From positions 1-43,247 of IMG/VR virus record IMGVR_UViG_2540341091_000003: DNA of 43,247 nucleotides. One strand, 5' to 3'. The DNA comes from a virus. Lineage: Duplodnaviria; Heunggongvirae; Uroviricota; Caudoviricetes. Position 1 is the first letter of the stretch; the number at the start of each line of letters is the position of its first letter. Positions 1,459 through 43,247 of the stretch are shown here, in pieces. Below the pieces are notes generated by a model. The model was given only the letters and a program-made list of their open reading frames with translations, was not told the DNA's origin and ran no database searches. The translations under genes were made by a program, and so were the position numbers.

Positions 1459-2622
1459 TTACACATCATTAGTACCTTCCTTATTTTTTGACTGGGACAA
1501 ATTTGGGACCGATGGGTTCAGAATCGAGTCTATTTGCCGTGCGTGTTCGGTAAGGTGATTAGGCGCGAGGTGAGCATATCGACGAACCATTTCGATAGAC
1601 TCCCAGCCACCCATTTCCTGTAACACTGACAACGGGACTCCGGCTTGAACCAGCCAACTTGCCCAGGTGTGTCTCAAGTCGTGAAATCTGAAATCATCAA
1701 TACCAGCTCGTCTCAGCGCCGCTTTCCAGGCTGTGTTTGCGTCATACCGCATCTTCCTTACTGTTGGCGCTTTCGTTCCGTCTGGTTTGGTACAGCTTTC
1801 CTTGTACACAAATACCCAACGGTGATGATTCCCGATTTGTTTTTTCAAAACGCGACATGCAGTATCATTCAGCGCAACGCCGATTGCGCGGTTTGATTTA
1901 CTCTCTTCCGGGTTTATCCATGCCACCCGGCGCTGCATATCTATTTGTTGCCATTCAAGGTTGATGATGTTCGAGCGTCTTAAACCTGTTGCCAGTGCAA
2001 ATTCAACAACAGACTTTAATGGCTCCGGACATTCATCAATCAGCCTTTGTGCTTCATGGGGCTCCAGCCAGCGGATCCGTTTATTCTTTGGTTGAGGCAC
2101 TTTAATAATTGGTGCCTTATCCAGCATTTTCCATTCACGCTCTGCGGCTCTTAGTAGGGCCTTTATAAATGAAAGATGCGTAGCCTTCGTTGCAACGGAC
2201 GCTGGTTTTGGCGTGTATTCTGGAACAGGTTTCCCTTTTTTTCTGCATGCTTCTGCCCTGAGTTTCCAGTTTTCCTCATGACGCCGGTTCGTCATTTTCT
2301 GCATTGCTGAATAAATTTTTGATTCAGTAATGTCTCTTAGTTGCATTCCTGCGAAATGTTGAAGCCAGAATCCGATCCGGCTTTTGTCATCGTCCAGTGA
2401 TTTTTTATGTGCTTTCTCTTCAAGCCACCTGACACACGCTTCCTCGAACGTTATATCAGGTATTTCACCAAGTTTGCTGACCCGCCATGCTTCAGCCTTT
2501 AGCTTGTCATGGAGTTCTGTCGCCTGCCTTTTGTCCTTTGTTCCAAGAGACTGTTTAAATCTTTTACCGTTCGGCAATGTGAAACTGGCGTACCATATTT
2601 CACCTCTGCGGAAGAGTGACAT
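1459..2622 (-). CDS. Tyrosine-type site-specific integrase
   Basis: 387-aa ORF adjacent to the tRNA; C-terminal catalytic region ...[41 protein letters not shown]... (R, H-x-x-R and Y of tyrosine recombinases). Confidence 0.93.
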
Positions 2623-2849
2623 TTTCTTTCCTCTGTTATGCCATCACCCGCGCTCACCTGGACAGTATGCAGCGGAGACTGAAGAGCCGCAATGCAGGCT
2701 TGTCGTGTTGTGAGGTAAGGAGATTTATTCTTAGTGGGATCTTTGCGTGTTGCCTGAAGACGCCCTGTGCGTATCCAGTTAATGGCAGTCGGTCTGGATA
2801 TCTTGAGAAAATGACAGGCCTCATCGAGTGTGAGGCTGTATGGCTCCAT
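2499..2849 (-). CDS. Excisionase/AlpA-like small DNA-binding protein (start assumed at the internal Met of the 2499..2933 ORF)
   Basis: [37 protein letters not shown]... looks like a helix-turn-helix of the Xis/AlpA type directly upstream of int; the 3' part overlaps int by ~124 bp in another frame, so the C-terminal extent is uncertain. Confidence 0.5.
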
Positions 2850-3154
2850 TATTTCACCTCTTGCTGTGACATTGTTGAAAAATGGATACCAGCTCGTTGC
2901 TGCCAGACGATCCAACCGAGAGTCATATCCCATGCCATGTATTCGTTATCGCCGTTTTTTGCTCTCCGACGATCTACTAAGTCACCGAAACGCTTTTCCA
3001 TGAATAATTCATAAGCTTCGCGTTCATCTGGTTCTACTTCCAGAGATAGGAGTGCGATTTCATAAGCACGGCGCTCAATATCGTCTCGCACGTCAAGGCT
3101 GCTGATACGCTCTTTAATTTCTTTAATCAGTTCTTTGTCGGTAAAAGTGGTCAT
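2849..3154 (-). CDS. Phage early protein, hypothetical (101 aa; YfdT-like by position and size)
   Basis: ORF with ATGA-type overlaps to both neighbours in a co-directional early-left operon; acidic, no motif recognised. Confidence 0.6.
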   Translation of the reverse strand: MTTFTDKELIKEIKERISSLDVRDDIERRAYEIALLSLEVEPDEREAYELFMEKRFGDLVDRRRAKNGDNEYMAWDMTLGWIVWQQRAGIHFSTMSQQEVK

Positions 3155-3516
3155 TATGCTCCAGCCTCCGGTGCTTTTGGCATTACTGCCCAGTGAGTGA
3201 TATTGACGTTTTCAAGGTCCCCGACCTGAAATGTCCACTGCCATTCTCCGGTTTCTTTTTGTCCCCAGGTGTACCAGAGAGAACGCCAGCCAATTAGCCA
3301 GCCTTCTCCTTTAGCATCGAATAACAAAACACTTTCATTTGCTGGTGGCAGTTCAGTTGACACTGGTATTACTTTGTTTTCCTGTGCTGCACATTTAGCT
3401 TCAAGCGCATCGAATTTACGCACCAGGTATTCAGCATCTGTTTCATTTACTTTCAGATCTCGCGGTACACATCTCCCACGAAGAAACCCTTCCATTTCGA
3501 AAACATTCATGCGCAT
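3154..3516 (-). CDS. Phage early protein, hypothetical (120 aa; YfdS-like)
   Basis: ORF translationally coupled to flanking genes; Trp-rich C-terminal half reminiscent of small lambdoid early proteins. Confidence 0.6.
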   Translation of the reverse strand: MRMNVFEMEGFLRGRCVPRDLKVNETDAEYLVRKFDALEAKCAAQENKVIPVSTELPPANESVLLFDAKGEGWLIGWRSLWYTWGQKETGEWQWTFQVGDLENVNITHWAVMPKAPEAGA

Positions 3517-4070
3517 TTGCGTAACTCCGATAACTCGTTAAAGCGTTCCATAAACATCCCGTAGGCATGGCCCGGTGCCAGTGGAATCACGTTGAACATC
3601 TCTGTTGCCGGGATACCTTCCAGTACAGGCCAGAAAGAGCCATCATCAAGCCCGAGATCGCGCTGTTCGGTTGCCAGCATGATGAGATCGGCATATTTCA
3701 CGGGCGTACTCATAACTGGGGGTAACCCGTATTTCTCACGGATTACGGCGTCTATTTTTTCTTCCATTTGTTTATAGTCAGGAAGAAGGCGTTTCAGTGG
3801 TGCGGGAATGTCCTGGCAATACGCTTCTGTTGCATCATGCATTAACGCTTCAAAAGCAAATTCCTGCGGCACCAGCTGGCTGCAAAGAACCGCATGTTGG
3901 GCGACGCTGTAGAAGTGCGAAAGATGACCGGCAAAGCGACAGATATTTGAAAGGGAAACCGCGATATCGTTAATATCGATGTCGTCTTTATTTATCCTGT
4001 CATAATAAAAATGCTTCCCGGAAAAAGTTTTAATAAATGACATTTTGTTCTCCACGTATATGCGCTGCAC
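3507..4070 (-). CDS. HD-domain phosphohydrolase (YfdR-like)
   Basis: Motifs ...GHLSHFYSVAQHAVLCS... and ...LMHDATEAYCQDIP... match the H...HD...D metal-binding pattern of HD hydrolases. Confidence 0.7.
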   Translation of the reverse strand: MQRIYVENKMSFIKTFSGKHFYYDRINKDDIDINDIAVSLSNICRFAGHLSHFYSVAQHAVLCSQLVPQEFAFEALMHDATEAYCQDIPAPLKRLLPDYKQMEEKIDAVIREKYGLPPVMSTPVKYADLIMLATEQRDLGLDDGSFWPVLEGIPATEMFNVIPLAPGHAYGMFMERFNELSELRKCA

Positions 4071-4995: not shown

Positions 4996-5059
4996 AATAA
5001 GTCCTCACTATATAAAGATATTCAGTGATGAGATAAATAATCAGTTTATTAGAACGATA

Positions 5060-5422
5060 TTAACGACCTGCTGCGCGGAGTTTTCCGTCAGGTTCACCGG
5101 CAAGAGTCAGTAATTGTCCCTGGTCTTCCTGCAGAATAGTCAGGCGACCACCGCGATTGACATACATCGGCGTTTCGGTGGTGTCTTCTTCGGAAATTTT
5201 CCCGCGGTTAGTCGGGCGAACATATGAGAGTTTGTGTTTGATTTTCACTCGGTTCTCATCAAACGGTTCGATTTCCAGGTTGAGCGAGACCTTACCTTTG
5301 GTTTTCGTGTTCATCACACCGGAAGCGACTTCACTGAGAACTGCGCCGATTTTGGTTTCAAATACGCCGCCGTCCAGCTCCCCGATAAATGCCTGCACAT
5401 CAGTACTGCGTTCGCTAGCCAT
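5060..5422 (-). CDS. Small phage early protein (YfdP-like, 120 aa; start at internal ATG 5420-5422 preceded by GAGGAG)
   Basis: The 226-aa ORF in the track has a Pro/Arg-rich, non-protein-like N-terminal extension; the Met at 5422 has a strong RBS and gives a 120-aa product MASERSTDVQAFIGELDGG.... Confidence 0.6.
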   Translation of the reverse strand: MASERSTDVQAFIGELDGGVFETKIGAVLSEVASGVMNTKTKGKVSLNLEIEPFDENRVKIKHKLSYVRPTNRGKISEEDTTETPMYVNRGGRLTILQEDQGQLLTLAGEPDGKLRAAGR

Positions 5423-5890
5423 TTTGCTGCTCCTCATCATATCGACCCTGCAAGGTCGGTTAGTTTCTCCACAAAACAGAGAAGAACACCTGCGGTGACT
5501 GCCGCCCGGATGGATTGGGTTATGAGCCCGTCGTCCGGTGATGCTCTTCTCTGTTTTGTAAAAAGGACGGTACCAGCCGGAAGCAAGGGTACAAGCTGGT
5601 ACCGCCAAGACTACACACAGCATAAAGTTGTGGTGCCGGGTGCCTCCCGGTGCCTGGCGAAGGTTGCACACCAGGCGGGTGGGTATCCACAGAAGGTCGA
5701 CTGTCAGCCTCAACCTTAACCCGCGTGCGCTGAGCCGCATTCACCACAACGCTAAGGATTCTCTCTGGTTGAAAATACTTAGCTGTTATGTGCCTGCTTT
5801 TAGCCACATCAGGCGAGGTGGACCTAGTTATTCCCCAACAACAAGGATTCGGTTAATCTGGTTATCCCCAACAACGCAAAAGGAAAAGAA

Positions 5891-31032: not shown

Positions 31033-32361
31033 ATGACGTGGAAAGACAGACTTCAGGACGCGTCATTTCGCGGTGTGCCGTTTAAGGTTGAAGAAGAAAG
31101 TGCGGGAACCGGTCGTCGTGTGGAAACGCACGAATACCCGAACCGCGACAAACCCTATACTGAAGACCTGGGGAAAATCACTTTCCGCCCGTCCATCACG
31201 GCTTATGTAGTGGGAGATGACTGCTTTGACCAGCGCGATCGCCTGATTGACGCGCTGAATAAACCCGGTCCCGGCACGCTTGTCCATCCGACTTACGGTG
31301 AGCTGAAAGTCTGTGTTGACGGAGAGGTTCGGGTCAGCACATCGAAGAGTGAAGGGCGTATTGTCCGCTTTGACCTGAAGTTTGTCGAAGCGGGAGAACT
31401 CTCTTACCCCACATCAGGTGCGGCGACGGCGCAGACGCTGATGTCATCCTGTTCTGCACTGGATGACTGCATCAGTGACAGCTTCAGCGGTTTCAGTATC
31501 GATGGCGTGGCGGATTTTGTGCAGAACGACGTCGTCGGTAATGCCAGCACAATGCTTGGGTATGTTTCTGATGCGATGAAAGTGGTGGATTCTGCCGTAT
31601 CGGATGCTGCCAGGCTGTTGCAGGGGGATATCTCGGTACTTCTGCCGCCACCATCGTCAGGCAAAAATTTCGTTGAGCAGGTGCAGAAAATGTGGCGTAC
31701 CGGGAAACGCCTTTATGGTAACGCCAGCGACCTGGTCACCATGATCAAAACGCTTTCCGGTGTCAGCCTCGGCAGCGATCTGCAACCGCGCGGCGTCTGG
31801 AAAACGGACAGTAAAACCACCGCCACGGCGACGCATCAGCGTAACGAGGTTGCCAGTACCCTTCGTACGACCGCAATCAGCGAAGCGGCGTATGCCGTCA
31901 CCCGATTGCCTGCGCCAACAACTTCCGCGGTGATGCAGAATGCCGCAGTGGGGCAGTCAACAACACCTGCGCAGAGCACTGGCTGGCCTTCCGTCACGCA
32001 TCCGGCACTGAACAATGCACCGGCGGTGAAAAACACGGTTGACCTGCCAACGTGGGAAGAACTGACTGACATTCGCGACACACTGAATACGGCAATTGAT
32101 AAGGAGTTGTCCCGTACAACCAGTGATGCGCTGTTTCTGGCACTGCGCCGGGTGAAAGCAGATCTGAATGCGGATATCAACACGCGCCTTGAACAGTCTG
32201 CACGGATCATTCAGCGCACACCGGATGAGGTTTTACCCGCGCTGGTGCTGGCGGCGACCTGGTTTGATAACGCGGCGCGTGATGCGGACATTATCCGGCG
32301 TAATACCATTACGCATCCCGGCTTTGTGCCGGTGATCCCTCTGAAGGTGCCAGTGCAATGA
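31033..32361 (+). CDS. DNA circularisation protein (Mu N/gp43-like)
   Basis: N-terminus MTWKDRLQDASFRGVPFKVEEESAGTGRRVETHEYPNRDKPYTEDLGK matches the Mu N-type motif as I recall it. Confidence 0.7.
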   Translation: MTWKDRLQDASFRGVPFKVEEESAGTGRRVETHEYPNRDKPYTEDLGKITFRPSITAYVVGDDCFDQRDRLIDALNKPGPGTLVHPTYGELKVCVDGEVRVSTSKSEGRIVRFDLKFVEAGELSYPTSGAATAQTLMSSCSALDDCISDSFSGFSIDGVADFVQNDVVGNASTMLGYVSDAMKVVDSAVSDAARLLQGDISVLLPPPSSGKNFVEQVQKMWRTGKRLYGNASDLVTMIKTLSGVSLGSDLQPRGVWKTDSKTTATATHQRNEVASTLRTTAISEAAYAVTRLPAPTTSAVMQNAAVGQSTTPAQSTGWPSVTHPALNNAPAVKNTVDLPTWEELTDIRDTLNTAIDKELSRTTSDALFLALRRVKADLNADINTRLEQSARIIQRTPDEVLPALVLAATWFDNAARDADIIRRNTITHPGFVPVIPLKVPVQ

Positions 32362-33437
32362 ACGACAATGTCACGCTACGGGTAAATGGCCGGGAGTGGA
32401 ATGGCTGGACATCGGTGCGCATCGGTGCCGGTGTTGAACGACTGGCGCGGGATTTCAGTGTGGAGATCACCCGCCAGTGGCCGGGTGATGAGGGTATCAC
32501 CACGCTTCAGCCGCGCATTAAAAACGGTTCAAAAGTGGAGGTGCTGATTGGTGATGAGCTGGTGATCACCGGCTGGGTGGAGGCGACGCCCGTTCGTTAC
32601 GATGCCCGTTCGGTCAGCACCGGTATTGCCGGACGCAGTCTGACCGCTGACCTGATTGATTGTGCAGCTGAACCGACACAGTTTAACGGACGATCACTGG
32701 TACAGATTGCGCAGGCGCTTGCTGCGCCCTTCGGCATTGAGGTGGTGAACAGCGGTGCGCCGTCGGGTGTTATTCCTGATGTCCAGCCTGATCACGGTGA
32801 AACGGTGATCGAGGTGATTAACAAAATACTCGGTCAGCAGCAGGCGCTGGCTTATGACGACCCGCACGGCAGGCTGGTGATTGGCGGTATTGGCTCAACG
32901 CGGGCACATACCGCGCTGGTACTCGGGGAAAACATCCTTTCCTGCGATACGGAGAAGAGTATCCGGGAGCGGTTTTCTGTTTACCAGGTGGCGGGGCAGC
33001 GTGCCGGAAACGACGATGATTTCGGTGAGGCCACCACAACTGCGCTGCGGGCCCGCACAGAGGACGCATTTATTGCCCGTTACCGTCCGATGTATATCAG
33101 GCAGACAGGGCAGGCTACGGGGGCAGGCTGTATTGCGCGTGCTGACTTTGAAGCCCGACAACGGGCGGCGCGGACGGATGAAACCACCTATGTGGTGCAG
33201 GGCTGGCGACAGGGTAACGGTACGCTGTGGCAGCCCAACCAGCGGGTGATTGTCTTCGATCCGGTCTGTGGTTTCGACAATACCGAACTGCTTGTCTCGG
33301 AAGTCACGTTTACTCAGGACCAGAATGGCACCCTGACGGAAATCCGTGTCGGCCCACCTGATGCTTATCTGCCTGAACCCGAAGCCCCCGGCGCGCGGAA
33401 AAAGAAAAAAGCCAGAGTACAGGAGGACCCGTTCTGA
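32358..33437 (+). CDS. Baseplate hub protein (Mu P/gp44-like)
   Basis: 359 aa in conserved Mu-type order. Confidence 0.7.
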   Translation: MNDNVTLRVNGREWNGWTSVRIGAGVERLARDFSVEITRQWPGDEGITTLQPRIKNGSKVEVLIGDELVITGWVEATPVRYDARSVSTGIAGRSLTADLIDCAAEPTQFNGRSLVQIAQALAAPFGIEVVNSGAPSGVIPDVQPDHGETVIEVINKILGQQQALAYDDPHGRLVIGGIGSTRAHTALVLGENILSCDTEKSIRERFSVYQVAGQRAGNDDDFGEATTTALRARTEDAFIARYRPMYIRQTGQATGAGCIARADFEARQRAARTDETTYVVQGWRQGNGTLWQPNQRVIVFDPVCGFDNTELLVSEVTFTQDQNGTLTEIRVGPPDAYLPEPEAPGARKKKKARVQEDPF

Positions 33438-33985
33438 TGAAGGCGATTGAAGCCATGCAGCGACAACTCCTCGGCCTGATTGGGCGGGCGGTGGTGAAAA
33501 GCATCAGTGCCGCCACGAAATGTCAGACCGTGGATGTGTCCCTGATTGCCGGTGAACCCAAAGCCGGGGTTGAACATCTTGAACCCTACGGTTTTACCGC
33601 AAGGGCAAACAGCGGTGCGGAAGCGGTGGTGTTGTTTCCGGATGGTGACCGTTCTCATGCGGTGGTTGTTACGGTGTCGGACCGGCGCTACCGCCTGAAA
33701 GGGCTGCAGACGGGTGAGGTGGCTGTCTATGACGATCAGGGGCAGTCCGTGACGCTGACCCGGGAGGGGATCGTGGTGGACGGTGCAGGTAAAACGATCA
33801 CGTTTCGCAATTCACCTAAAGCACGTTTTGAAATGGACCTGGAAGTGACAGGACAGGTGAAAGACCTGTGCGACTCCAGCGGCACCACCATGTCAGCGAT
33901 GCGGCTTGCCTATAACGGGCATCGTCACAGAGAGAACGGTCAGGGCAGTAACACCGACAAACCTGATAAATCGATGGAGGCATGA
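33437..33985 (+). CDS. Baseplate spike / assembly protein V (Mu gp45-like)
   Basis: 182 aa with ATGA coupling in the conserved position. Confidence 0.7.
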   Translation: MKAIEAMQRQLLGLIGRAVVKSISAATKCQTVDVSLIAGEPKAGVEHLEPYGFTARANSGAEAVVLFPDGDRSHAVVVTVSDRRYRLKGLQTGEVAVYDDQGQSVTLTREGIVVDGAGKTITFRNSPKARFEMDLEVTGQVKDLCDSSGTTMSAMRLAYNGHRHRENGQGSNTDKPDKSMEA

Positions 33986-34410
33986 TGGAACTGTGGCTGA
34001 CGGTGAACGGTAAACGCACCTGCGCCAGCGCACCGCTGGATCCGCTGACCCGCGCCGTGGTGATTTCCCTGTTTACCTGGCGGCGGGCGGAGCCTGATGA
34101 CAACGCCGACGTCCCGATGGGATGGTGGGGGGATACCTGGCCTGCGGTACAGAATGACCGTTACGGCTCCCGACTGTGGCTGCTTCAGCGCAGCAAACTG
34201 ACCAATCAGCTGGTGCTGACGGTAAGGGGGTATATCCGCGAATGCCTGCAATGGATGATTGATGACGGCGTGGTGTCCCGTATTGATCTGGATATCCACC
34301 GCACCGGGATTAATGAACTGGGTAACAGTATCACTCTCTGGCGTCGTGACGGACCGGTAATGATTTCTTTTGATGATCTGTGGAGTGCGATAACGCATGG
34401 CGGACAGTGA
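33982..34410 (+). CDS. Baseplate protein (GP46 family)
   Basis: 142 aa; position and size. Confidence 0.65.
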   Translation: MMELWLTVNGKRTCASAPLDPLTRAVVISLFTWRRAEPDDNADVPMGWWGDTWPAVQNDRYGSRLWLLQRSKLTNQLVLTVRGYIRECLQWMIDDGVVSRIDLDIHRTGINELGNSITLWRRDGPVMISFDDLWSAITHGGQ

Positions 34411-35455
34411 ATTTCAGCGCCCGACGCTGGCAGAAAATATCAGTATGCTCCGTAACGATTTATTCGCCAGGCTGGACGTCAGCGACACGCTCCGGCGCAT
34501 GGATGAAGACGTGCGGGCAAAGGTGTATGCGGCGGCGCTGCATACGGTTTACGGGTACATCGATTATCTGGCAATGAACATGCTGCCTGACCTGTGCGAT
34601 GAGTCCTGGCTGGCGCGACATGCTGCGATGAAACGGTGTCCGCGCAAGGGGGCCACGGCTGCCAGCGGGTATATGCGCTGGGAAGGTGTCAGCGATGGCC
34701 TGAAGGTGACCGCCGGGAGTGTTATTCAGCGCGATGACCTGGTTCAGTACACGGCAACTGCCGATGCAACCAGCTCCGGTGGTGTCCTGCGCGTGCCGAT
34801 CGCCTGCTCAAGTGCAGGCGCGGTCGGTAACGCTGACGACGGTACGTCATTAATCCTGGTCACGCCGGTTAATGGTCTGCCGTCTTCCGGCGTGGCAGAT
34901 ACCCTGACAGGTGGATTTGATACTGAAGAGCTGGAAACGTGGCGTGCCCGCGTCATTGAGCGGTATTACTGGACGCCTCAGGGCGGGGCTGACGGGGACT
35001 ATGTCGTCTGGGCTAAAGAAGTGCCCGGCATTACCCGCGCATGGACATACCGTCACTGGATGGGAACGGGAACTGTCGGTGTGATGATTGCCAGCAGTGA
35101 CCTGATTAATCCCATTCCGGAAGAATCAACGGAAACGGCAGCAAGACAACATATCGGGCCACTGGCCCCGGTGGCAGGCTCTGATTTGTATGTATTCAGG
35201 CCGGTGGCACATACGGTGGATTTTCATATCCGCGTGACGCCGGACACACCGGAAATACGGGCTGCCATTACCGCGGAGTTGCGTTCGTTCCTGCTGCGTG
35301 ATGGTTATCCGCAGGGAGAACTGAAGGTATCGCGTATCAGTGAGGCGATTTCCGGTGCGAACGGGGAATACAGCCATCAGTTGCTTGCACCGGTGGACAA
35401 TATCTCCATTGCGAAAAACGAACTGGCGGTACTGGGGACGATTTCATGGACGTGA
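34397..35455 (+). CDS. Baseplate J-like wedge protein (Mu gp47-like)
   Basis: 352 aa; conserved order. Confidence 0.8.
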
Positions 35456-36030
35456 CAAACGATGATTACATCCGCCTGTTATCGGCACTGTTGCCGCCCG
35501 GTCCGGCGTGGTCAGCCAGCGATCCGGCGATTGCCGGTGCGGCACCGTCATTAACCCGTGTTCATCAGCGTGCGGATGCCCTGATGCGGGAGCTGGATCC
35601 GCGCACCACCACTGAACTGATAAACCGCTGGGAGCGTCTGTGCGGTCTGCCGGATGAATGTATTCCGGCGGGAACGCAGACCCTTCGCCAGCGTCAGCAA
35701 CGGCTGGATGCGAAGGTTAACCTGGCGGGCGGCATCAACGAGGATTTTTATCTTGCACAGCTTGCTGCCCTGGGCAGACCAGATGCCACCATCACGCGAT
35801 ACGACAAAAGCACGTTCACCTGCTCATCGGCCTGTACTGACGCGGTGAATGCGCCGGAATGGCGGTATTACTGGCAGGTCAACATGCCAACCACCACCAA
35901 CACCACCTGGATGACATGTGGCGATCCCTGTGATTCCGCACTGCGTATCTGGGGTGACACCGTTGTCGAGTGTGTGCTTAACAAACTCTGCCCGTCGCAT
36001 ACCTACGTAATTTTTAAATATCCGGAGTAA
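35446..36030 (+). CDS. Baseplate/tail protein (Mu gp48-like)
   Basis: 194 aa upstream of the tail fibre gene. Confidence 0.65.
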
Positions 36031-36033
36031 TCC

Positions 36034-36795
36034 ATGCATCGTATAGACACGAAAACCGCGCAGAAGGATAAGTTCGGCGCGGGTAAGAACGGTTTTACCC
36101 GTGGTAACCCCCAGACTGGCACGCCTGCCACCGATCTGGATGATGACTACTTTGATATGTTGCAGGAAGAACTCTGCAGCGTGGTGGAGGCATCCGGTGC
36201 CAGCCTGGAGAAGGCGCGGCACGACCAGTTGCTTACCGCGCTTCGTGCGCTGCTGTTAAGCCGCAAGAATCCGTTTGGCGATATCAAATCGGATGGCACG
36301 GTGAAAACAGCTCTCGAAAACCTTGGTTTGGGAGAAGGCTCTGCATTACCGGTTGGTGTGCCTGTTCCGTGGCCTTCAGCCACTCCGCCAACGGGGTGGC
36401 TAAAATGTAACGGAGCAGTATTTTCTTCTGAAAAGTACCCAAATCTGGCAAAGGCTTACCCAACATTAAAATTACCAGATTTACGCGGGGAATTTATTCG
36501 TGGCTGGGATGATGGGCGCGGGATTGACTCTGGTCGTAACTTATTATCTGCACAGAATGATGCAATTCAGAATATTGTTGGTTCTTTTGGGCGTACCCAG
36601 CTTTTTAGAGACGTACTTAGTTCAGGGCCATTTAGTCAACATGGGAAAGTATTATCTACAGGTCTAAAGGAAGCCGAAATTATTGATGGTTATGGCGCTT
36701 ATAACTGGACATTCGACGCATCTCGCTCAGTTCGCACAGCATCTGAAACCCGCTCCCGTAACATCGCCTTTAATTATATTGTGAGGGCTGCATGA
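36034..36795 (+). CDS. Tail fibre protein: constant N-terminus (to ~36322) fused to a variable C-terminal cassette inside the invertible segment
   Basis: The gene crosses the left recombination site (36311-36336); the C-terminal 155 aa are duplicated, inverted, at 37961..38433. Confidence 0.8.
36311..36336. promoter_or_regulatory. Left crossover site of the invertible segment (gix/hix/pix-like 26-bp site)
   Basis: CTCTCGAAAACCTTGGTTTGGGAGAA; the inner half-site TTCTCCCAAACC (read on the minus strand) is shared with the right site, centre dinucleotide TT versus AA. Confidence 0.65.
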
Positions 36796-37279
36796 TAAGT
36801 AAAGCTGTATTAAATAATGAACTCATCGCCACAAAGGCCGGAGACATTACCGTTTATAATTATGATGGTGAAACACGGGAATATATTTCCACATCAACTG
36901 AATATCTTGCTGTGGGTGTCGGTATCCCGGCATATTCCTGTTTAGATGCCCCAGGCGCATACAAAGCTGGTTATGCAATCTGCCGATCTGCAGATTTTAA
37001 CTCATGGGAATATGTGCCAGACCATCGCGGTGAAATCGTCTTTAGCACCGAAACAGGAGAATCAAAAGAAATCACAGTTCCGGGTGATTACCCTGATAAT
37101 ACAACCACTATCGCCCCGTTAACGCCATACGATAAATGGGATGGTGAGAAATGGGTGACGGATACCGAGGCACAGCATAGCGCCGCAGTAGACGCGGCAG
37201 AAGCACAACGTCAGTCACTGATTGATACTGCAATGGCTTCCATTAGTCTGATTCAACTGAAATTGCAGGCCGGACGGAA
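36323..37279 (+). repeat. Left arm of a 957-bp perfect inverted repeat
   Basis: Every region I spot-checked by reverse-complementing 37477..38433 (both ends and two internal stretches) is identical to the corresponding part of 36323..37279. Confidence 0.85.
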
Positions 37280-37397
37280 ACTGACGCAGGCAGAAACAAC
37301 CCGACTTAACGCCGTGCTGGATTACATTGACGCGGTGACGGTAACAGATACCAGCACCGCGCCGGATATCATCTGGCCTGAACTGCCGGAGGCGTAG
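36792..37397 (+). CDS. Tail fibre assembly chaperone (Tfa)
   Basis: 201-aa ORF immediately after the fibre gene; N-terminal 163 aa are duplicated, inverted, at 37477..37964. Confidence 0.8.
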
Positions 37398-37476
37398 GCC
37401 ATTCAATATCTGGCGCACTGGAAGTATCGACCAGCTCCAGTGCGTCCAGATAATCCAGCCACAAATTATATTGAAC

Positions 37477-37964
37477 TTCCGTCCGGCCTGCAATTTCAGT
37501 TGAATCAGACTAATGGAAGCCATTGCAGTATCAATCAGTGACTGACGTTGTGCTTCTGCCGCGTCTACTGCGGCGCTATGCTGTGCCTCGGTATCCGTCA
37601 CCCATTTCTCACCATCCCATTTATCGTATGGCGTTAACGGGGCGATAGTGGTTGTATTATCAGGGTAATCACCCGGAACTGTGATTTCTTTTGATTCTCC
37701 TGTTTCGGTGCTAAAGACGATTTCACCGCGATGGTCTGGCACATATTCCCATGAGTTAAAATCTGCAGATCGGCAGATTGCATAACCAGCTTTGTATGCG
37801 CCTGGGGCATCTAAACAGGAATATGCCGGGATACCGACACCCACAGCAAGATATTCAGTTGATGTGGAAATATATTCCCGTGTTTCACCATCATAATTAT
37901 AAACGGTAATGTCTCCGGCCTTTGTGGCGATGAGTTCATTATTTAATACAGCTTTACTTATCAT
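37477..37964 (-). pseudogene. Inverted second copy of the tfa 5' region (163 codons), which then reads antisense into the 3' end of the plus-strand tfa
   Basis: The track ORF 37215..37964 is identical to Tfa for 163 aa and then becomes W/C-rich nonsense that is the reverse complement of the genuine Tfa C-terminus. Confidence 0.6.
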
Positions 37965-38433
37965 GCAGCCCTCACAATATAATTAAAGGCGATGTTACGG
38001 GAGCGGGTTTCAGATGCTGTGCGAACTGAGCGAGATGCGTCGAATGTCCAGTTATAAGCGCCATAACCATCAATAATTTCGGCTTCCTTTAGACCTGTAG
38101 ATAATACTTTCCCATGTTGACTAAATGGCCCTGAACTAAGTACGTCTCTAAAAAGCTGGGTACGCCCAAAAGAACCAACAATATTCTGAATTGCATCATT
38201 CTGTGCAGATAATAAGTTACGACCAGAGTCAATCCCGCGCCCATCATCCCAGCCACGAATAAATTCCCCGCGTAAATCTGGTAATTTTAATGTTGGGTAA
38301 GCCTTTGCCAGATTTGGGTACTTTTCAGAAGAAAATACTGCTCCGTTACATTTTAGCCACCCCGTTGGCGGAGTGGCTGAAGGCCACGGAACAGGCACAC
38401 CAACCGGTAATGCAGAGCCTTCTCCCAAACCAA
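37961..38433 (-). other. Silent inverted tail-fibre C-terminal cassette (identical to the expressed one)
   Basis: 155 codons identical to the C-terminus of the 36034..36795 fibre; no independent start; the upstream part of the track ORF crosses the crossover site. Confidence 0.7.
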
Positions 38434-38445
38434 CGTTTATGAAAA
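38420..38445. promoter_or_regulatory. Right crossover site of the invertible segment
   Basis: TTCTCCCAAACCAACGTTTATGAAAA, ~55 bp upstream of the invertase start. Confidence 0.65.
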
Positions 38446-38499
38446 TGCAGAAATAACGAGCAAATGGCATCATTCCTGCTTTTGTCAGGGGGATCTACC

Positions 38500-39054
38500 A
38501 TGCTTATTGGCTATGTACGCGTATCAACAAATGACCAGAACACAGATCTACAACGTAATGCGCTGAACTGTGCAGGATGCGAGCTGATTTTTGAAGACAA
38601 GGTAAGCGGTACAAAGTCCGAAAGGCCGGGACTGAAAAAACTGCTCAGGACATTATCGGCAGGTGACACTCTGGTTGTCTGGAAGCTGGATCGGCTGGGA
38701 CGTAGTATGCGGCATCTGGTCATTCTGGTTGAGGAGTTGCGCGAACGTGGCGTTAATTTTCGCAGCCTGACGGATGCTATTGATACCAGCACACCGATGG
38801 GGCGTTTTTTCTTTCATGTGATGGGTGCCCTGGCTGAAATGGAACGAGAACTGATTGTTGAACGAACAAAAGCTGGACTGGAAGCTGCTCGCGCACAGGG
38901 ACGAATTGGTGGACGTCGTCCCAAACTTACACCAGAACAATGGGCGCAGGCCGGGCGATTAATTGCATCAGGCGTTCCTCGCCAGAAGGTGGCTATTATC
39001 TATGATGTTGGTGTGTCAACTTTGTATAAGAGGTTTCCAGCCAGGGTTATATAA
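38500..39054 (+). CDS. Serine DNA invertase (Pin/Gin/Hin family)
   Basis: MLIGYVRVSTNDQNTDLQRNAL... with catalytic Ser in VRVST, plus a C-terminal HTH; adjacent to the invertible tail-fibre segment. Confidence 0.92.
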   Translation: MLIGYVRVSTNDQNTDLQRNALNCAGCELIFEDKVSGTKSERPGLKKLLRTLSAGDTLVVWKLDRLGRSMRHLVILVEELRERGVNFRSLTDAIDTSTPMGRFFFHVMGALAEMERELIVERTKAGLEAARAQGRIGGRRPKLTPEQWAQAGRLIASGVPRQKVAIIYDVGVSTLYKRFPARVI

Positions 39055-39396
39055 AACCGCAGACATGTCGTATGCAGGAGGTGTCGCGGTTGGCTGGTGA
39101 ACTTTTGATAGTGCGAGTATTGAATGATTTCCAGCCGTTACTGATTTTACGCATTTTTGTATGAGAGGGTTTGCACCTCCTTCCACCGATTCTCCATGAC
39201 TTTACGCCACTGTCTCTAGAACTGCTATGTGCCAACAGCAGACATTCATAGCACACAGTTTTGTTAACAACTAGAAATAAGTTTAGGAATAGTCGCGATA
39301 TATCTATTAAAGATACAATCATTCAAATAAATGAGACATTTTCGGCATGCTGGGAAAAGTAATTAAAAATGGTGAAAGCCAATTGTTTTTTATTAA

Positions 39397-39903
39397 TCAA
39401 CTTTTAAACCATAAGTCATCTCGATAGAGTAGACTAATTTTCGTTGCATCTTTTGATGCTAGAGTCGTACACTCTCCTTTATCAAACTCATCTAGACTCA
39501 CAAATGTAAATTCGTCACCATTTTTTTCTTTCGGAAACACCATAAAGACTACTTCGAAAGTACAATCACTATACACATTTTTTAAGAATTGCTGAAGTGC
39601 TCTATACTTTCCTATTTCACAATCAGTAAGTGTAAAGGAGGTACACCCATCTGTTGAGTGATACTTCGCATCTAAAAGAATATAAGAGGATTCGTCAGCG
39701 TCAATAATGAAATCGGGGCGTTTCCCCCCATATGATTTCAAGTTTGCAGATAAGGTATTTATTCCTTGCTCAACATGTTCAAATTTCCACTTGGATTTTT
39801 CCAGCCATCTACTAGCATATTTCTCACCATCTTGACCAGCCGTTATAGAGTATTGTTTTCTTAATGCGCTGCACATTTCGTCTAAATTTAACATAAATTC
39901 CAT
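39397..39903 (-). CDS. Small AT-rich protein with a PD-(D/E)xK-like nuclease motif (start 39903 or 39894)
   Basis: ...GGKRPDFIIDADESSYILLDAKYH... fits the D...(D/E)xK pattern of restriction-endonuclease-fold nucleases; AAGGA RBS; low GC. Confidence 0.55.
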   Translation of the reverse strand: MEFMLNLDEMCSALRKQYSITAGQDGEKYASRWLEKSKWKFEHVEQGINTLSANLKSYGGKRPDFIIDADESSYILLDAKYHSTDGCTSFTLTDCEIGKYRALQQFLKNVYSDCTFEVVFMVFPKEKNGDEFTFVSLDEFDKGECTTLASKDATKISLLYRDDLWFKS

Positions 39904-40149
39904 GTTCCTTTTTTTTAGTATAATTATTAACATCGGCAGTATTTAATAATTCTTTAAAAATAAATTTTCAGGCTCATACCAATTATATCTTCAAGCATTA
40001 TTATCAAGCATATTCGAGACCTCTGCAATTCGCTCACAGCGGATCTCGCCTAGCGAGCAGGTCTGCTCAGTGCCATAATTAGTCTCATCAGCAGACTATA
40101 GTTGTGCTCAATCGGAGACATGTGGCAAACATGAGGAACATTATGTCCG

Positions 40150-40386
40150 TCAAAGAGTTTTCGTAGCTTAGGCATTTCGATGCTGGCAACGGGTCAGTGT
40201 AACGCTTACTATATCGGTCCACTTTAGTCTTAAGGGTTCAATATGGCGTTGCACCTATTGTCCGCTGACCAAGAATCTTCGGGTGATTCAACTTCTGTTG
40301 GGTCATAAGAAACTGGAAAGCACATTCCGTTATCTGGGCATTGAAGTCGATGATGCGTTAGAGATCTCTGAATCGATTGAAGTCTA
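40150..40386 (+). pseudogene. Remnant of a tyrosine recombinase gene (C-terminal catalytic region only, with frame disruptions)
   Basis: The frame ending at TAA 40384-40386 reads ...LTKNLRVIQLLLGHKKLESTFRYLGIEVDDALEISESIEV, i.e. the LGH...RY region carrying the catalytic Tyr; the upstream reading frame is broken. Confidence 0.5.
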
Positions 40387-40493
40387 AGGTTGTCAGGGCT
40401 GCAACAGCAGCCCTGTGCCAGGAGCAGACGTTAACGACCAAGCATTGGCGGCAATTGAGCTCAGCGCAATTGCCGTTCAAGTGCAACTCCGTT

Positions 40494-43247
40494 CTATTTG
40501 ATTGCTGCATTGATTCGTTTATATCTTTGGGTAAAGGCCTCTTTGCCACCTTCCATCACTCGGCATATCTCATCGCGTATGGAAGGTTCTTGAAGACCCC
40601 CTTGCGCCACAATTCTGGTTTGACCAGACCGAATATCAAGGGCAATGACGTTTTCCGCGTCACCATTCACGACGATGTTAGCGTTGTGCGTGACTACTAA
40701 AACCTGCCGTTTTTGTTTGATCTCACGCAATTGCGTCACGATAAGATCATAGATTAAGTGGTTATCAAGATCATCCTCAGGCTGATCAAGTATAAGAGGC
40801 TCATTGCCATATGAAAGGATAAATGCAAGGAGAGCCGCCGTTTTTTGCCCCGGAGATCCTTGCTCTACGGGTTTGAAACTCTCGCCGTTCTTGAGGCTAT
40901 ATCTGATATCCAGAGAATCGCCTGGAAACCAGCACTGAATTCGATCTATCTGTTCCGGAGTTAGCCCCTGAATGAGGGATACAAAACGTCGATCTTTGCA
41001 GGATTCCACCGCCATAGTATCGTTTTCATGGATTGCAAGTAGCGATGATTTTATTTTCTCAATTTTATCATCCATAGTATTGGATTGGTCTTGCGTTAAA
41101 TAAGCCAGCAAGCCCTCATCCCCGTCAACAACTCCAATGTCGCGGTCAAATCCGCCACCACTGCGGCCGATCAGGTTACGGAATTCTTCCTCAACCGTAA
41201 TCTTGTTTCCAAACGGAATGACATTGATCTGTACATATGAATTGCCGACGAGAGTATCCTTGAGAAAGTCCTCACGAAGTTTGGTTATCAATGCTCGATG
41301 CTCATGGAGTTTGACCAAGTATTCTTCCGCGCTCTTCTGATGCTGCGCAAGAGTTTCTCTCTTTTTGTCGAATCCCTTGAGCTTATCTTCGAAATCTTGT
41401 CGCTGCTTAACCAGAACACCATATGCAGATGGATCACCTGCGTCTGCTGCGCTGAGTTGACCGAGGAGGGCGTTGTATTCATGGCTCGCCGCTGTAATTC
41501 TTTTCGATATTCCCAAGTCTGATCGAGTTTGATTCCATGAGTTCTTCACATCATCAATCCGCTGCGCGATCGAGTTCATCTCTGTCTGAAGCTTCTCAAA
41601 CGTCGCACGGATGTCCTTGATGGTATCGAAGAGTTCTTTGTCATCCGCATTCCCAATGTCGAAATATTGTAAATCCAATTCTGCTGGCAGTAGGCTTCCA
41701 GAAATATCTCGGACCTGTTCGGCGGAATCCTCCCAAGTCGTTACCCAGGAGTCCATAGCCTTACTCTGGTTCTGTCTGAGTTGGTAAGCCTTAAGGACAT
41801 CCGCGTGGCCCGCCTTTTCAAAAACATCGAGTTTGCGTTTGACGTCTTCAAGCTGACCTTTGGTTACCGATTCTTCCTGAAGCCCAGCCTGAACTTCACG
41901 CTCTTGGGCGCGAAGCGAGAGATATTTGGAAACCAGTTCATCCCACTTAAGCTGCCAATCACGATGATTGACCTCCGGGGCATCATCGACAACCTGCAAG
42001 AGTGCTTGGGGATGCTTTGCCAATTCGAATATCTGTTTCTGGCTGTAAATCCTGACAGGAAATCGTTGTGCTATGTCTCCCTCGGAATCACACCAGACTC
42101 CGGGAGCGGTCTCTTCCTCGATGCTGTATATGTCGTCGGTATTAGACCAGGTGATTCGGAAACGGCCACCGTCTTTTCGAAAGCCTACAGTTATTTTCGT
42201 GGAATCTTTTAACAGCCCTTCATCTTGGCGGTCTTTCGAAGTTTGACTGTATTTGGTAAATTCCTTTTCAAGGCTCTTGGGGATTTCTCCCTTTCGTTTA
42301 AGAGCAATCCGCAGGAATTCCAACGAAGTCGATTTCCCAGTGCCTCGTCCACCAATGATAGTGTTGAGCCAGGGGTTCAGTTGACAAGTTAAAGATTGCC
42401 CTCGTCCTAAGTACTTCGCATCATCAACCACGATACTTTCGATGGCAAGTTGTCCATGGATATTTGGGTCACCAGTGAAGTTGTCCGACCGCTTCAGTGA
42501 AAGAGCACCATCAACGAGCGCCAGCCGTAATCCGTCATAAGATGGCTCCGACATTTTTACCCAAGTGAAATGGCTACCCGGGTAGCGTTGATTTCCGGTA
42601 CCGGACGGATGATGGGAATCGGTTCCAAGAATCTCTGCCCAATTCAAATTCTTGCCAATATAGAGCTGCGGTTTTGCTTTAGCAAGGTCCGTTACCTCCA
42701 TAGCAAAAACACATTTGTTGTCAAGCACCTGCTCTAGTGTGTTGCCCGTACAGACCGTAAAAAGTCCGCTAGCCTGATCTACATGAGCAGGTATTGCAAG
42801 TCCTCCTGACCTAGCAATTTCGTCGATCACCTCAACTGCTGAGCATTCAGAGCAGCCGTCGCTCTTTCCTTTGGTGCCGCGATACCTGACCGCACCAAGC
42901 AGTGAGTCGATATCAGAGGTTGTCTTGTCTTCGCCGAAAATGGCCAGAATATGGATATTCCCCTGAACAGTAAGCTCAACACCTGGGAATAAGTAGAGTG
43001 GTCGATAATCTTCATGACTCTCAGATGCCAGTTCCTTGAGTGCCTGCTTGAGCGGATCAATCCAAGCGCCTGAATTATGGTCCGTGACAGCGACACAATC
43101 GATGCCTTGTCGCATGTAGTTGAGCAGCCAATCTTTATGAGTGATCTGCATATACTGGGCCTGATTAGGGCCTTTTCCATAATCGTCCGATGCCGGAGTG
43201 TGATTATGGAAGTCGAATTTCCACCACCGAGAACCAATCCAGTTCAT
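40494..43247 (-). CDS. PHP-domain phosphoesterase fused to an SMC/RecN-like ABC ATPase (917 aa); architecture resembles Ppl-type single-gene antiphage proteins
   Basis: N-terminal PHP motifs (WWKFDFHNHTPAS; VAVTDHN; GVELTV...IHILAIF; AIPAHVD; LGTDSHHP), Walker A GGRGTGKST (~aa 299-307), long coiled-coil-like insert, signature-like QGSPGQKTAALLAFIL, Walker B LILDQPEDDLD and VVTHN H-loop. The window ends exactly at its start codon. Confidence 0.8.
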   Translation of the reverse strand: MNWIGSRWWKFDFHNHTPASDDYGKGPNQAQYMQITHKDWLLNYMRQGIDCVAVTDHNSGAWIDPLKQALKELASESHEDYRPLYLFPGVELTVQGNIHILAIFGEDKTTSDIDSLLGAVRYRGTKGKSDGCSECSAVEVIDEIARSGGLAIPAHVDQASGLFTVCTGNTLEQVLDNKCVFAMEVTDLAKAKPQLYIGKNLNWAEILGTDSHHPSGTGNQRYPGSHFTWVKMSEPSYDGLRLALVDGALSLKRSDNFTGDPNIHGQLAIESIVVDDAKYLGRGQSLTCQLNPWLNTIIGGRGTGKSTSLEFLRIALKRKGEIPKSLEKEFTKYSQTSKDRQDEGLLKDSTKITVGFRKDGGRFRITWSNTDDIYSIEEETAPGVWCDSEGDIAQRFPVRIYSQKQIFELAKHPQALLQVVDDAPEVNHRDWQLKWDELVSKYLSLRAQEREVQAGLQEESVTKGQLEDVKRKLDVFEKAGHADVLKAYQLRQNQSKAMDSWVTTWEDSAEQVRDISGSLLPAELDLQYFDIGNADDKELFDTIKDIRATFEKLQTEMNSIAQRIDDVKNSWNQTRSDLGISKRITAASHEYNALLGQLSAADAGDPSAYGVLVKQRQDFEDKLKGFDKKRETLAQHQKSAEEYLVKLHEHRALITKLREDFLKDTLVGNSYVQINVIPFGNKITVEEEFRNLIGRSGGGFDRDIGVVDGDEGLLAYLTQDQSNTMDDKIEKIKSSLLAIHENDTMAVESCKDRRFVSLIQGLTPEQIDRIQCWFPGDSLDIRYSLKNGESFKPVEQGSPGQKTAALLAFILSYGNEPLILDQPEDDLDNHLIYDLIVTQLREIKQKRQVLVVTHNANIVVNGDAENVIALDIRSGQTRIVAQGGLQEPSIRDEICRVMEGGKEAFTQRYKRINAAIK

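Follow-up and report, generated by a model that had tools for sequence, protein, structure and literature searches.

An inverted duplication in the Pin-type tail-fibre segment of an Escherichia coli APEC O78 prophage, probably an assembly artefact

The invertible tail-fibre segment of a prophage in the deposited E. coli APEC O78 genome was found to consist of two identical inverted arms around a short unique core, with one fibre cassette present twice. The underlying system is well known, and the oddity is an artefact or a recent one-off rearrangement, most likely the former. The palindrome is probably a finishing error in the 2013 APEC O78 assembly, beneath which an ordinary e14/SfV-type Pin segment would lie. 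The stretch of DNA analysed here (43,247 nt; hereafter the window) is 100% identical to the APEC O78 genome sequence (CP004009.1) and contains a full-length SfV/SfIV-like phage located at proA-thrW.

Anatomy of the inverted segment

A single inverted repeat was detected (36318-37279 and 37477-38438; arms of 962 nt separated by 197 nt), which represents the sole repeat of at least 40 nt in the entire 43 kb window. The 962 nt arm alignment exhibits one mismatch, a C/G difference at 36322 that falls within the outer half-site, and exact arm identity begins at the central crossover dinucleotide. An earlier note on this DNA had described perfectly identical inverted arms of 957 bp, which was borne out by direct string comparison of 36323-37279 with the reverse complement of 37477-38433 (957/957 identical).

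Two 26 bp crossover sites were identified in inverted orientation with matching central dinucleotides (TT/AA). The left site (36311-36336, plus strand; CTCTCGAAAACC TT GGTTTGGGAGAA) is located inside the fibre ORF, and the right site (38420-38445, minus strand) reads TTCTCCCAAACC AA CGTTTATGAAAA on the plus strand and TTTTCATAAACG TT GGTTTGGGAGAA as its reverse complement. Both are letter-for-letter the sites of the K-12 e14 P segment (left to left, right to right), and the pattern of the left site also matches the EC958 Phi2 sites (PMC4134206). The pin gene (38500-39054, plus strand) encodes a serine DNA invertase of 184 aa with Pfam Resolvase (PF00239; 5.9e-52) and HTH_7 (PF02796; 1.5e-13) domains; it shares 175 of its 184 residues with K-12 PinE, and the two genes are 99% identical over their initial 200 nt. 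These domains, together with the e14-identical sites, uphold the earlier assignment of the region to the Pin/e14-type invertible tail-fibre segments. A further hallmark of such segments is a Fis-dependent recombinational enhancer located towards the 5' end of the invertase gene. In the annotation of relatives, pin is designated pinE and tfaA is designated tfaE.

The tail-fibre gene (36034-36795, plus strand; 253 aa; AGC85718.1, annotated in APEC O78 as 'putative tail fiber/collar phage protein') crosses position 36323, where its constant N-terminus is fused to the facing cassette: the segment excludes the 96 codons of the constant N-terminus and includes the C-terminal cassette with its Collar domain (PF07484, residues 108-155), designated here as cassette A. 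It is followed by tfaA (36792-37397, plus strand; AGC85719.1), a complete tail-fibre assembly gene of 201 codons, the product of which matches positions 1-131 of the 131-position Pfam Caudo_TAP profile. The left arm (36323-37279, plus strand) thus comprises codons 97-253 of the fibre gene and codons 1-163 of tfaA, and the right arm (37477-38433, minus strand) comprises the inverted copy of cassette A with the same 163 codons; the deduced ORFs agree with what the earlier note had assigned to each arm. When judged against relatives, the right copy truly reaches 37474. The copy of cassette A on the right is silent, being present as a 169 aa ORF (37961-38470, minus strand) without the constant fibre N-terminus, and an identical 169 aa product is encoded by a close relative (L174) as its normal stored cassette. 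A convergent pair of differing cassettes, each with a complete tfa, is absent from the deposit, in which the second copy of tfaA stops at codon 163.

The unique core (37280-37476; 197 nt), the edge triplets of which are ACT (37280-37282) and AAC (37474-37476; GTT on the opposite strand), contains the final 38 codons of tfaA on the plus strand and, on the minus strand, the final 34 of a second tfa. The claim that this spacer encodes only the end of the plus-strand tfa was therefore correct as to the 38 codons, but not as to 'only'. The minus-strand sequence (tfaB; 37369-37473) represents the C-terminal 34 codons and stop codon of a convergent second tfa, shares 29 nt with the end of tfaA, an overlap that normal segments also have, and is collinear with tfaB of five relatives (L001, L002, L004, L005 and L007) up to 37473. 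This remnant is a relic of the normal second cassette.

Simulated inversion altered positions 37280-37476 alone, leaving the 253 aa fibre protein identical and converting Tfa from 201 aa to 249 aa with a frameshifted tail. The longer form corresponds to a chimeric ORF (37215-37964, minus strand) consisting of tfaA residues 1-163 and a frameshifted tail of 86 aa; it is the Tfa predicted to be expressed after inversion, and a look-up found it recorded nowhere as a called gene. As its match to the Caudo_TAP profile extends only to position 93 of 131, the profile comparison and the simulation concur with the earlier proposal that inversion keeps the fibre and trades the conserved Tfa C-terminus for nonsense sequence. 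Other long tfa variants were considered as counterparts and rejected: those of 250 and 310 aa extend beyond the normal Tfa C-terminus and that of 229 aa carries an internal duplication, all without the frameshifted tail of the window.

A novel joint between two orientation isomers

The lineage to which this prophage belongs was shown to hold the segment in both orientations, with the remaining DNA 99.9% identical. L174, which exhibits three mismatches in ~10.2 kb of flanking sequence, carries cassette A and a different cassette, B, in the flipped state (A adjoining pin), whereas L007, which is 99.85-99.98% identical, carries the same pair in the other orientation (A adjoining the constant fibre part). 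The window is exactly L007-like through 37473 and L174-like from 37474 on, positions 37474-43247 being collinear with L174 with a single mismatch in 5,774 nt. A search for a divergent second cassette in homologous prophages, as the earlier note had advised, was performed, and relatives do carry one: two different cassettes with complete tfa genes are present in L174, L007, L001 and K-12. In normal segments, the cassettes are homologous over ~200 bp beside the sites (85-87% identity) and in a conserved tfa C-terminal block.

The joint between 37473 and 37474 (37470-37480; ATATTG/AACTTCC, with CAAATTATATTGAACTTCCGTCCGG as its diagnostic sequence) fuses the C-terminal block of tfaB to the inverted tfaA at codon 164. 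It displays 0 nt of microhomology, departs from homologous register by 19 nt and disrupts the reading frame; it is an illegitimate joint rather than the end of a conversion tract. A search of 5,426 complete E. coli genomes did not recover this joint, and neither GTDB representatives nor IMG/VR nor the JGI metagenomes yielded an exact match to it. A query with cassette A retrieved 983 records with at least 80% coverage; among the best 40 of these 983 matches, 39 end at 37473 and one ends earlier, with none crossing the joint. The sole instance of the palindrome sits in an assembly of the short-read era. Among 116 Pin loci, the only other long inverted repeat of 100% identity was observed in an IMG/VR scaffold (L097), where a 618 nt inverted duplicate of a cassette adjoins pin. 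There, a single N marks the scaffold join and one copy lies at a contig end, whereas the deposited APEC O78 segment shows neither an N nor any other mark of joining.

The alleles at the arm edges differ, the left copy carrying ACT and the right copy GTT. GTT is found at this position in all close relatives of the prophage, and ACT is the allele carried by tfa in a second type of prophage (L013/L014), whose tfa region matches positions 37116-37473 with 100% identity. APEC O78 itself encodes a tfa protein of this second type (AGC85394.1), the gene for which lies ~325 genes upstream; the baseplate proteins of the window all differ from their counterparts in L013. The inverted copy stops 1 nt past the ACT/GTT polymorphism.

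Several origins of the joint were examined and rejected. Pin recombination at a quasi-site does not fit, as the surroundings of 37280 and 37474 are unlike the AAACC-NN-GGTTT core, and joining through microhomology is contradicted by the lack of shared bases, the nearby TTCC and 'L-T/A-Q' similarities failing to give the observed sequence. A mis-join made by a de Bruijn or overlap assembler at a shared k-mer was likewise discarded, the core and its own reverse complement sharing at most 9 exact nt. A Newbler contig boundary at 37473 caused by the second prophage found no support, the B cassettes of L007 and L013 being identical around that point.

Assembly error and rival explanations

CP004009.1 was built with Newbler, Velvet and manual closure from 454 reads averaging ~400 nt, 100 bp Illumina reads and 8 kb mate pairs (2013), and the 957 nt arm exceeds every reported read length (~400 nt on average for 454, 100 bp for Illumina). 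Under the favoured explanation of a finishing error, the true segment would hold two cassettes with convergent tfa genes, as in the near-clonal relatives: cassette A with its Collar-domain fibre tip and 201 aa Tfa, and cassette B with a gp53-like tip and a 139 aa Tfa. Pin would recombine the two 26 bp sites, exchanging the tip and its chaperone after the constant fibre N-terminus, and both orientations would be present in cultures. Finishers would then have linked the left half of one isomer (the left flank, cassette A, tfaA and the end of tfaB, ending at 37473) with the other isomer's right half (inverted tfaA, cassette A and the right flank, starting at 37474). Such a mis-join would use cassette A twice and drop ~665 bp of cassette B, and the joint itself presumably lacks read support. 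The earlier note had offered assembly collapse across a repeat as its second option; an assembly problem is indeed favoured here, but not a collapse, since a doubled cassette and the missing ~665 bp of cassette B are what an isomer mis-join would be expected to produce.

There is precedent for mixed orientations in sequenced cultures: ~50% of reads were in the alternative orientation for the EC958 Phi1 segment, contigs in alternative orientation were obtained for two further EC958 segments, and such contigs were cautioned to result in artefactual duplications within regions of phage DNA (Forde et al. 2014, PMC4134206). In addition, the end of the inverted copy 1 nt past the polymorphism fits sequence blocks that end at repeat differences better than a chromosomal break at random. 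Nevertheless, the artefact would need manual or gap-closing abutment, because normal reads should lack ATATTG/AACTTCC and assemblers of the overlap or de Bruijn kind cannot create such a joint. Moreover, 37473 is not demonstrable as a repeat or contig boundary, as the B cassette of the second prophage is nearly identical to that of the relatives and shows no difference at the position matching the joint. The APEC O78 authors state that the assembly was validated through PCR, Sanger sequencing and read pairs, which counts against an artefact, and a real palindrome would have given exactly the same assembly from the Newbler contig graph.

It is possible, if on balance doubtful, that the palindrome is instead real, recent and strain-specific, having arisen by illegitimate exchange between oppositely oriented segment copies on sister chromosomes or replicating phage genomes. 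Such an exchange would have placed tfaA and the end of tfaB against an inverted tfaA-A-pin arrangement, with cassette B lost and a 2.1 kb near-palindrome left that is tolerated by the E. coli chromosome. Pin, or RecA acting on the 957 bp arms, would then flip only the 197 nt core, and Tfa would toggle between the intact 201 aa form and a 249 aa form without the conserved C-terminal Caudo_TAP part; host range would stay fixed because the fibre tip stays fixed. Consistent with a real event, the deposit lacks an N or join sign and carries a joint that assemblers could not produce without reads; its outer junctions are ordinary, and a single novel joint suffices, as cassette A adjoining pin is the normal flipped state (seen in L174). 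The perfect identity of the arms suits a very recent event, and the ACT/GTT difference could stem from repair at the stem-loop boundary, templated by the tfa gene of the second prophage. A spacer of 197 nt may also render a palindrome tolerable in E. coli.

Several observations weigh in the opposite direction. No further instance was found among the 5,426 complete genomes, the best 40 of the 983 A-cassette matches or the 116 Pin loci, and the lone case comes from an assembly built of reads too short to span an arm. Illegitimate joints in E. coli usually show some microhomology, and the complete lack of it here argues against a real rearrangement. The breakpoint would also have had to land within 1 nt of the only polymorphism relative to the paralogous tfa, with a second conversion event in addition. 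Finally, the product would be disadvantageous, because half of the population would make defective Tfa.

The earlier note had given homogenisation by gene conversion, leaving the switch locked, as its main reading; one cassette would then have overwritten the other by way of homologous sequences common to both. Although the arms are identical and normal cassettes share homologous stretches at both ends, this explanation was judged very improbable, since the joint contradicts it: the inner boundary lies out of register with 19 nt deleted relative to the tfaA/tfaB alignment, shares no bases and shifts the frame, whereas conversion that terminated within the conserved C-terminal block of tfa would yield a hybrid tfa with its frame intact. 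No intermediate or partly converted relative was observed, with 37473 crossed by none of the best 40 A-cassette matches. Scarcely credible is a selected ON/OFF switch, in which a palindromic design would subject Tfa, and with it the assembly of fibres, rather than host range to phase variation: inversion does toggle intact and truncated Tfa, but the arrangement occurs in one genome only and is conserved nowhere in the collections searched, its OFF form results from frameshifted reading into antisense sequence, and the tfaB relic shows that the segment descended recently from a normal one with two cassettes.

Relation to known invertible segments and significance

The closest known system is the e14 P segment (PinE; stfE/tfaE and stfP/tfaP), with which the deposit shares the order ymfQ, fibre gene, tfa, convergent tfa, stored cassette and pin. 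However, e14 and all relatives examined possess two dissimilar cassettes together with a convergent pair of complete tfa genes, whereas the deposit carries cassette A twice and 34 codons of the second tfa; in addition, e14 is defective, unlike the full-length SfV/SfIV-like prophage in the window. The P1 C segment with Cin and the Mu G segment with Gin similarly represent serine-invertase switches of tail-fibre C-termini with convergent tfa-type genes. The P1 C segment contains inverted repeats of ~0.6 kb, so that part of its variable region is the same in both orientations, and these repeats flank ~3 kb of different sequence. In the deposited segment, unlike in P1, the repeats make up 91% of the total and no alternative cassette is left. 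In the EC958 artefacts, contigs of both isomers are obtained from mixed cultures, and their integration duplicates a cassette in inverted orientation (Forde et al. 2014, PMC4134206); the APEC O78 joint differs from such artefactual duplications in lying inside the segment and not at a crossover site.

If the palindrome is an artefact, the 'complete' reference of a widely used APEC strain misstates the host-range switch of a prophage, missing cassette B, doubling cassette A and adding a spurious truncated tfa. The case would then show how invertible segments with paralogous copies elsewhere in the genome can lead short-read finishing astray. A real palindrome would instead be a natural example of orientation isomers of a site-specific inversion system recombining illegitimately, of modest interest for DNA inversion and palindrome stability but no novel class of system. 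In that case, the edge difference between ACT and GTT would record hairpin-provoked repair from a paralogous prophage gene. The alternative cassette would have been destroyed, a long palindrome with a 197 nt spacer would persist in a wild E. coli chromosome, and a host-range switch would have been turned into an on/off switch of a fibre chaperone.

Architecture of the invertible segment

A repeat search of the 43-kb window identified a single long inverted repeat (36318-37279 and 37477-38438, with 197 nt separating the arms) and no other repeat of at least 40 nt. String comparison of the arm at 36323-37279 with the reverse complement of 37477-38433 revealed 957 identities across 957 positions, in agreement with the identical inverted arms described in an earlier note on this sequence. 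Each end of the repeat is marked by a 26-bp site, at 36311-36336 (CTCTCGAAAACC TT GGTTTGGGAGAA) and 38420-38445 (reverse complement: TTTTCATAAACG TT GGTTTGGGAGAA), with exact arm identity starting at the central dinucleotide. The ORFs found in the window also matched the earlier description, and comprise a 253-aa fibre gene spanning the left site, a 201-aa tfa gene (tfaA), an inverted, silent copy of this cassette and the invertase gene pin (38500-39054, plus strand), whose 184-aa product is a serine recombinase containing Resolvase and HTH_7 domains. Inversion in silico altered the sequence at 37280-37476 only, with an identical fibre and a 249-aa Tfa whose Caudo_TAP profile match ends at position 93 of 131, upholding the claim that inversion leaves the fibre unchanged and swaps the Tfa C-terminus.

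The core between the arms (37280-37476) had been held to encode only the end of the plus-strand tfa; however, its minus strand was shown to encode, at 37369-37473, 34 residues that form the conserved C-terminal block specified by another tfa gene (tfaB) convergent with tfaA; the ends of the two genes share 29 nt, as in normal segments. This relic indicates that an ordinary two-cassette segment was either the ancestor of the locus or the material from which it was assembled. In the P segment of K-12 e14, both crossover sites are letter-for-letter the same as those of the window, and PinE is identical to the window Pin at 175 of 184 aa. The surrounding prophage, integrated beside proA, is SfV/SfIV-like and has a Mu-type baseplate, and the window is 100% identical to Escherichia coli APEC O78 (CP004009.1).

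Just past pin, at the prophage end, the minus strand (40494-43247) encodes a 917-aa TrlF-family/Ppl-like anti-phage ATPase (PADLOC Ppl, 2.3e-157; NCBIfam TrlF, 4e-195). This slot is occupied by Avs2 in Z0117EC0040, by McrA in K-12 e14, and in strain R12 by a hypothetical protein and, after it, a DNA cytosine methyltransferase, and thus resembles a site of variable defence cargo. A 178-aa ORF (39397-39933, minus strand), annotated in relatives as a 165-aa hypothetical protein (WP_015364431.1), separates pin from the Ppl-like gene. It gave no match in PADLOC or NCBIfam and is a possible partner of the defence gene; the sequence at its 5' end (39909-39964) is AT-rich and includes an imperfect inverted repeat of 22 nt.

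Comparison with two-cassette relatives

Every relative examined, K-12 e14 among them, has a pair of different cassettes along with two complete tfa genes in convergent arrangement, thus providing the divergent second cassette that the earlier note had proposed to seek in homologous prophages. Z0117EC0040 carries the same cassette A (Collar-domain tip and tfaA) at 97% identity, and the two-cassette segments of S163-2 and OkiPb01716 are accompanied by the same pin and cargo genes as in the window. The near-identical E. coli relative L007 (GCA_019367315.1) is collinear with window 32000-37473 (8 mismatches) and from 38419 onward (1 mismatch), the intervening sequence carrying a 139-aa tfaB and the gp53-like cassette B. 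In a second such relative, L174 (GCA_019592505.1), the segment lies in the opposite orientation; this genome differs from the window at 1 of 5,774 nt across 37474-43247 and at 2 of 4,431 nt across 31907-36337. The window therefore corresponds to an L007-form left part up to 37473, followed by an L174-form right part from 37474. Compared with a normal segment, ~665 bp of cassette B is absent and 960 nt of cassette A is duplicated.

On the minus strand, the joint at 37473/37474 reads GGACGGAAGTT directly followed by CAATATAAT, compared with GGACGGAAGTT followed by GACGCAGG at the matching site in tfaA of the relatives, and GAACTGGCG followed by CAATATAAT in their tfaB. It displays zero shared bases, lacks 19 nt relative to the tfaA/tfaB alignment and shifts the frame, which rules out homologous gene conversion as its origin; the homogenisation by conversion suggested previously is not compatible with such an out-of-register joint. 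An assembler tracking a shared k-mer was excluded as the source of the joint, as no exact match longer than 9 nt exists between the core and its own reverse complement.

The inverted copy is in reality 960 nt long, reaching GTT, which is shared by all close relatives, while the left copy has ACT at 37280-37282; Lys-Leu is encoded in either case. The ACT allele occurs naturally, in the tfa gene of a second prophage type (L013 and L014; 4 complete genomes from chickens), whose tfa region matches window 37116-37473 at 100% identity. The exact protein encoded by this gene is AGC85394.1, an APEC O78 accession ~325 genes before that of the window tfaA (AGC85719.1), indicating at the protein level that a paralogous tfa is encoded elsewhere in APEC O78. 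The breakpoint of the inverted copy lies 1 nt past the only difference between the two paralogues, with one allele per copy. At the position corresponding to 37473/37474, the B cassettes of the second prophage and of the relatives of this prophage do not differ, so that no repeat boundary is evident at 37473.

The GT-to-AC change (window 37280-37281 compared with L007 5489-5490 and L013) converts AAGTTG to AAACTG with Lys-Leu kept, is equivalent to swapping AGTT for its own reverse complement and, by hand alignment, raises complementarity to the convergent tfaB CAGTT motif from 6 to 8 of 10 positions. Judging from sequence, the ACT allele may have arisen by quasi-palindrome template-switch mutation, of which this pattern is the expected trace. 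L013 (E. coli APEC E19025) carries a truncated recombinase gene (4996-5515) beside an otherwise normal two-cassette segment, inversion of which would need Pin in trans from another prophage; trans-supplied Pin was proposed by Forde et al. for the EC958 Phi4 prophage (PMC4134206).

Rarity of the joint and its possible origins

A 201-nt query across the joint showed it to be absent from 5,426 complete E. coli genomes, strain R12, the one record to reach 80% coverage, being arranged differently. A query of arm plus core retrieved 983 records at or above this coverage; among the 40 matches listed, 39 end at 37473 and one ends earlier, with none crossing. The exact sequence of the joint had no match in GTDB species representatives, IMG/VR or JGI metagenomes, and no high-identity whole-segment palindrome was found among 116 Pin-family loci (GTDB representatives and IMG/VR) whose upstream sequence extended for 2 kb or more. 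The sole other 100%-identical long inverted repeat in this survey, a 618-nt inverted duplicate of a fibre cassette beside pin (IMGVR_UViG_2693429713_000022, 1-2964), was created by a scaffold join with a single N (2346) and is clearly an artefact of scaffolding at a locus of this type. In the segment next to pin in strain R12 (2073-3615), several partial tfa fragments (three annotated pseudogene pieces) lie between the cassettes, which suggests that segments of this kind have undergone rearrangements in the past, here in a genome submitted as complete.

CP004009.1 is a 2013 assembly produced with Newbler, Velvet and manual closure from 454 reads averaging ~400 nt, 8-kb mate pairs and 100-bp Illumina data; at read lengths of ~400 nt and 100 bp, no read spans a 957-nt arm. 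On balance, we lean towards an assembly artefact as the source of the palindrome, since the only instance known here occurs in an assembly with such short reads, near-clonal relatives are normal and represent both orientations, the joint is blunt and a paralogue polymorphism coincides with the arm edge, one allele on each side. Precedents are documented at exactly such loci: Forde et al. 2014 (PMC4134206) found ~50% of reads to support the alternative orientation at one EC958 segment and alternative-orientation contigs for two further segments, and warned that integrating such contigs gives rise to spurious duplications within phage regions. The breakpoint and allele pattern is one that might be expected if the blocks came from reads of two paralogous copies. 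Conversely, an artefact requires manual or gap-closing abutment at the joint without read support, the authors of CP004009.1 state that they verified their assembly using PCR, Sanger sequencing and read pairs, and a real palindrome would yield precisely the same assembly.

The latter points lend some weight to a real, very recent illegitimate exchange between two orientation isomers, an origin that we consider possible but doubtful, as the breakpoint beside the paralogue difference would then be a coincidence of roughly 1 in 100 and an extra conversion event would be needed to place one allele in each copy. Homologous gene conversion and a selected ON/OFF design are both very improbable.

Predicted behaviour of the segment

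If the deposit is wrong, the locus would work like those of e14, Mu G and P1 C. Pin, aided by a putative enhancer within the 5' portion of pin itself (predicted from 99% identity with pinE), would invert a 1.8-kb segment, and the Collar-type tip with its 201-aa chaperone would alternate with the gp53-like tip and a 139-aa chaperone. Should the deposit be right, only the 197-nt core would be flipped, either by Pin or by RecA via the 957-bp arms, in which case the fibre would be fixed and Tfa would toggle between intact and defective forms. Under either reading, the system is a member of a long-known family; its unusual trait is probably not biological and, if it were, would represent a one-off degenerate derivative.
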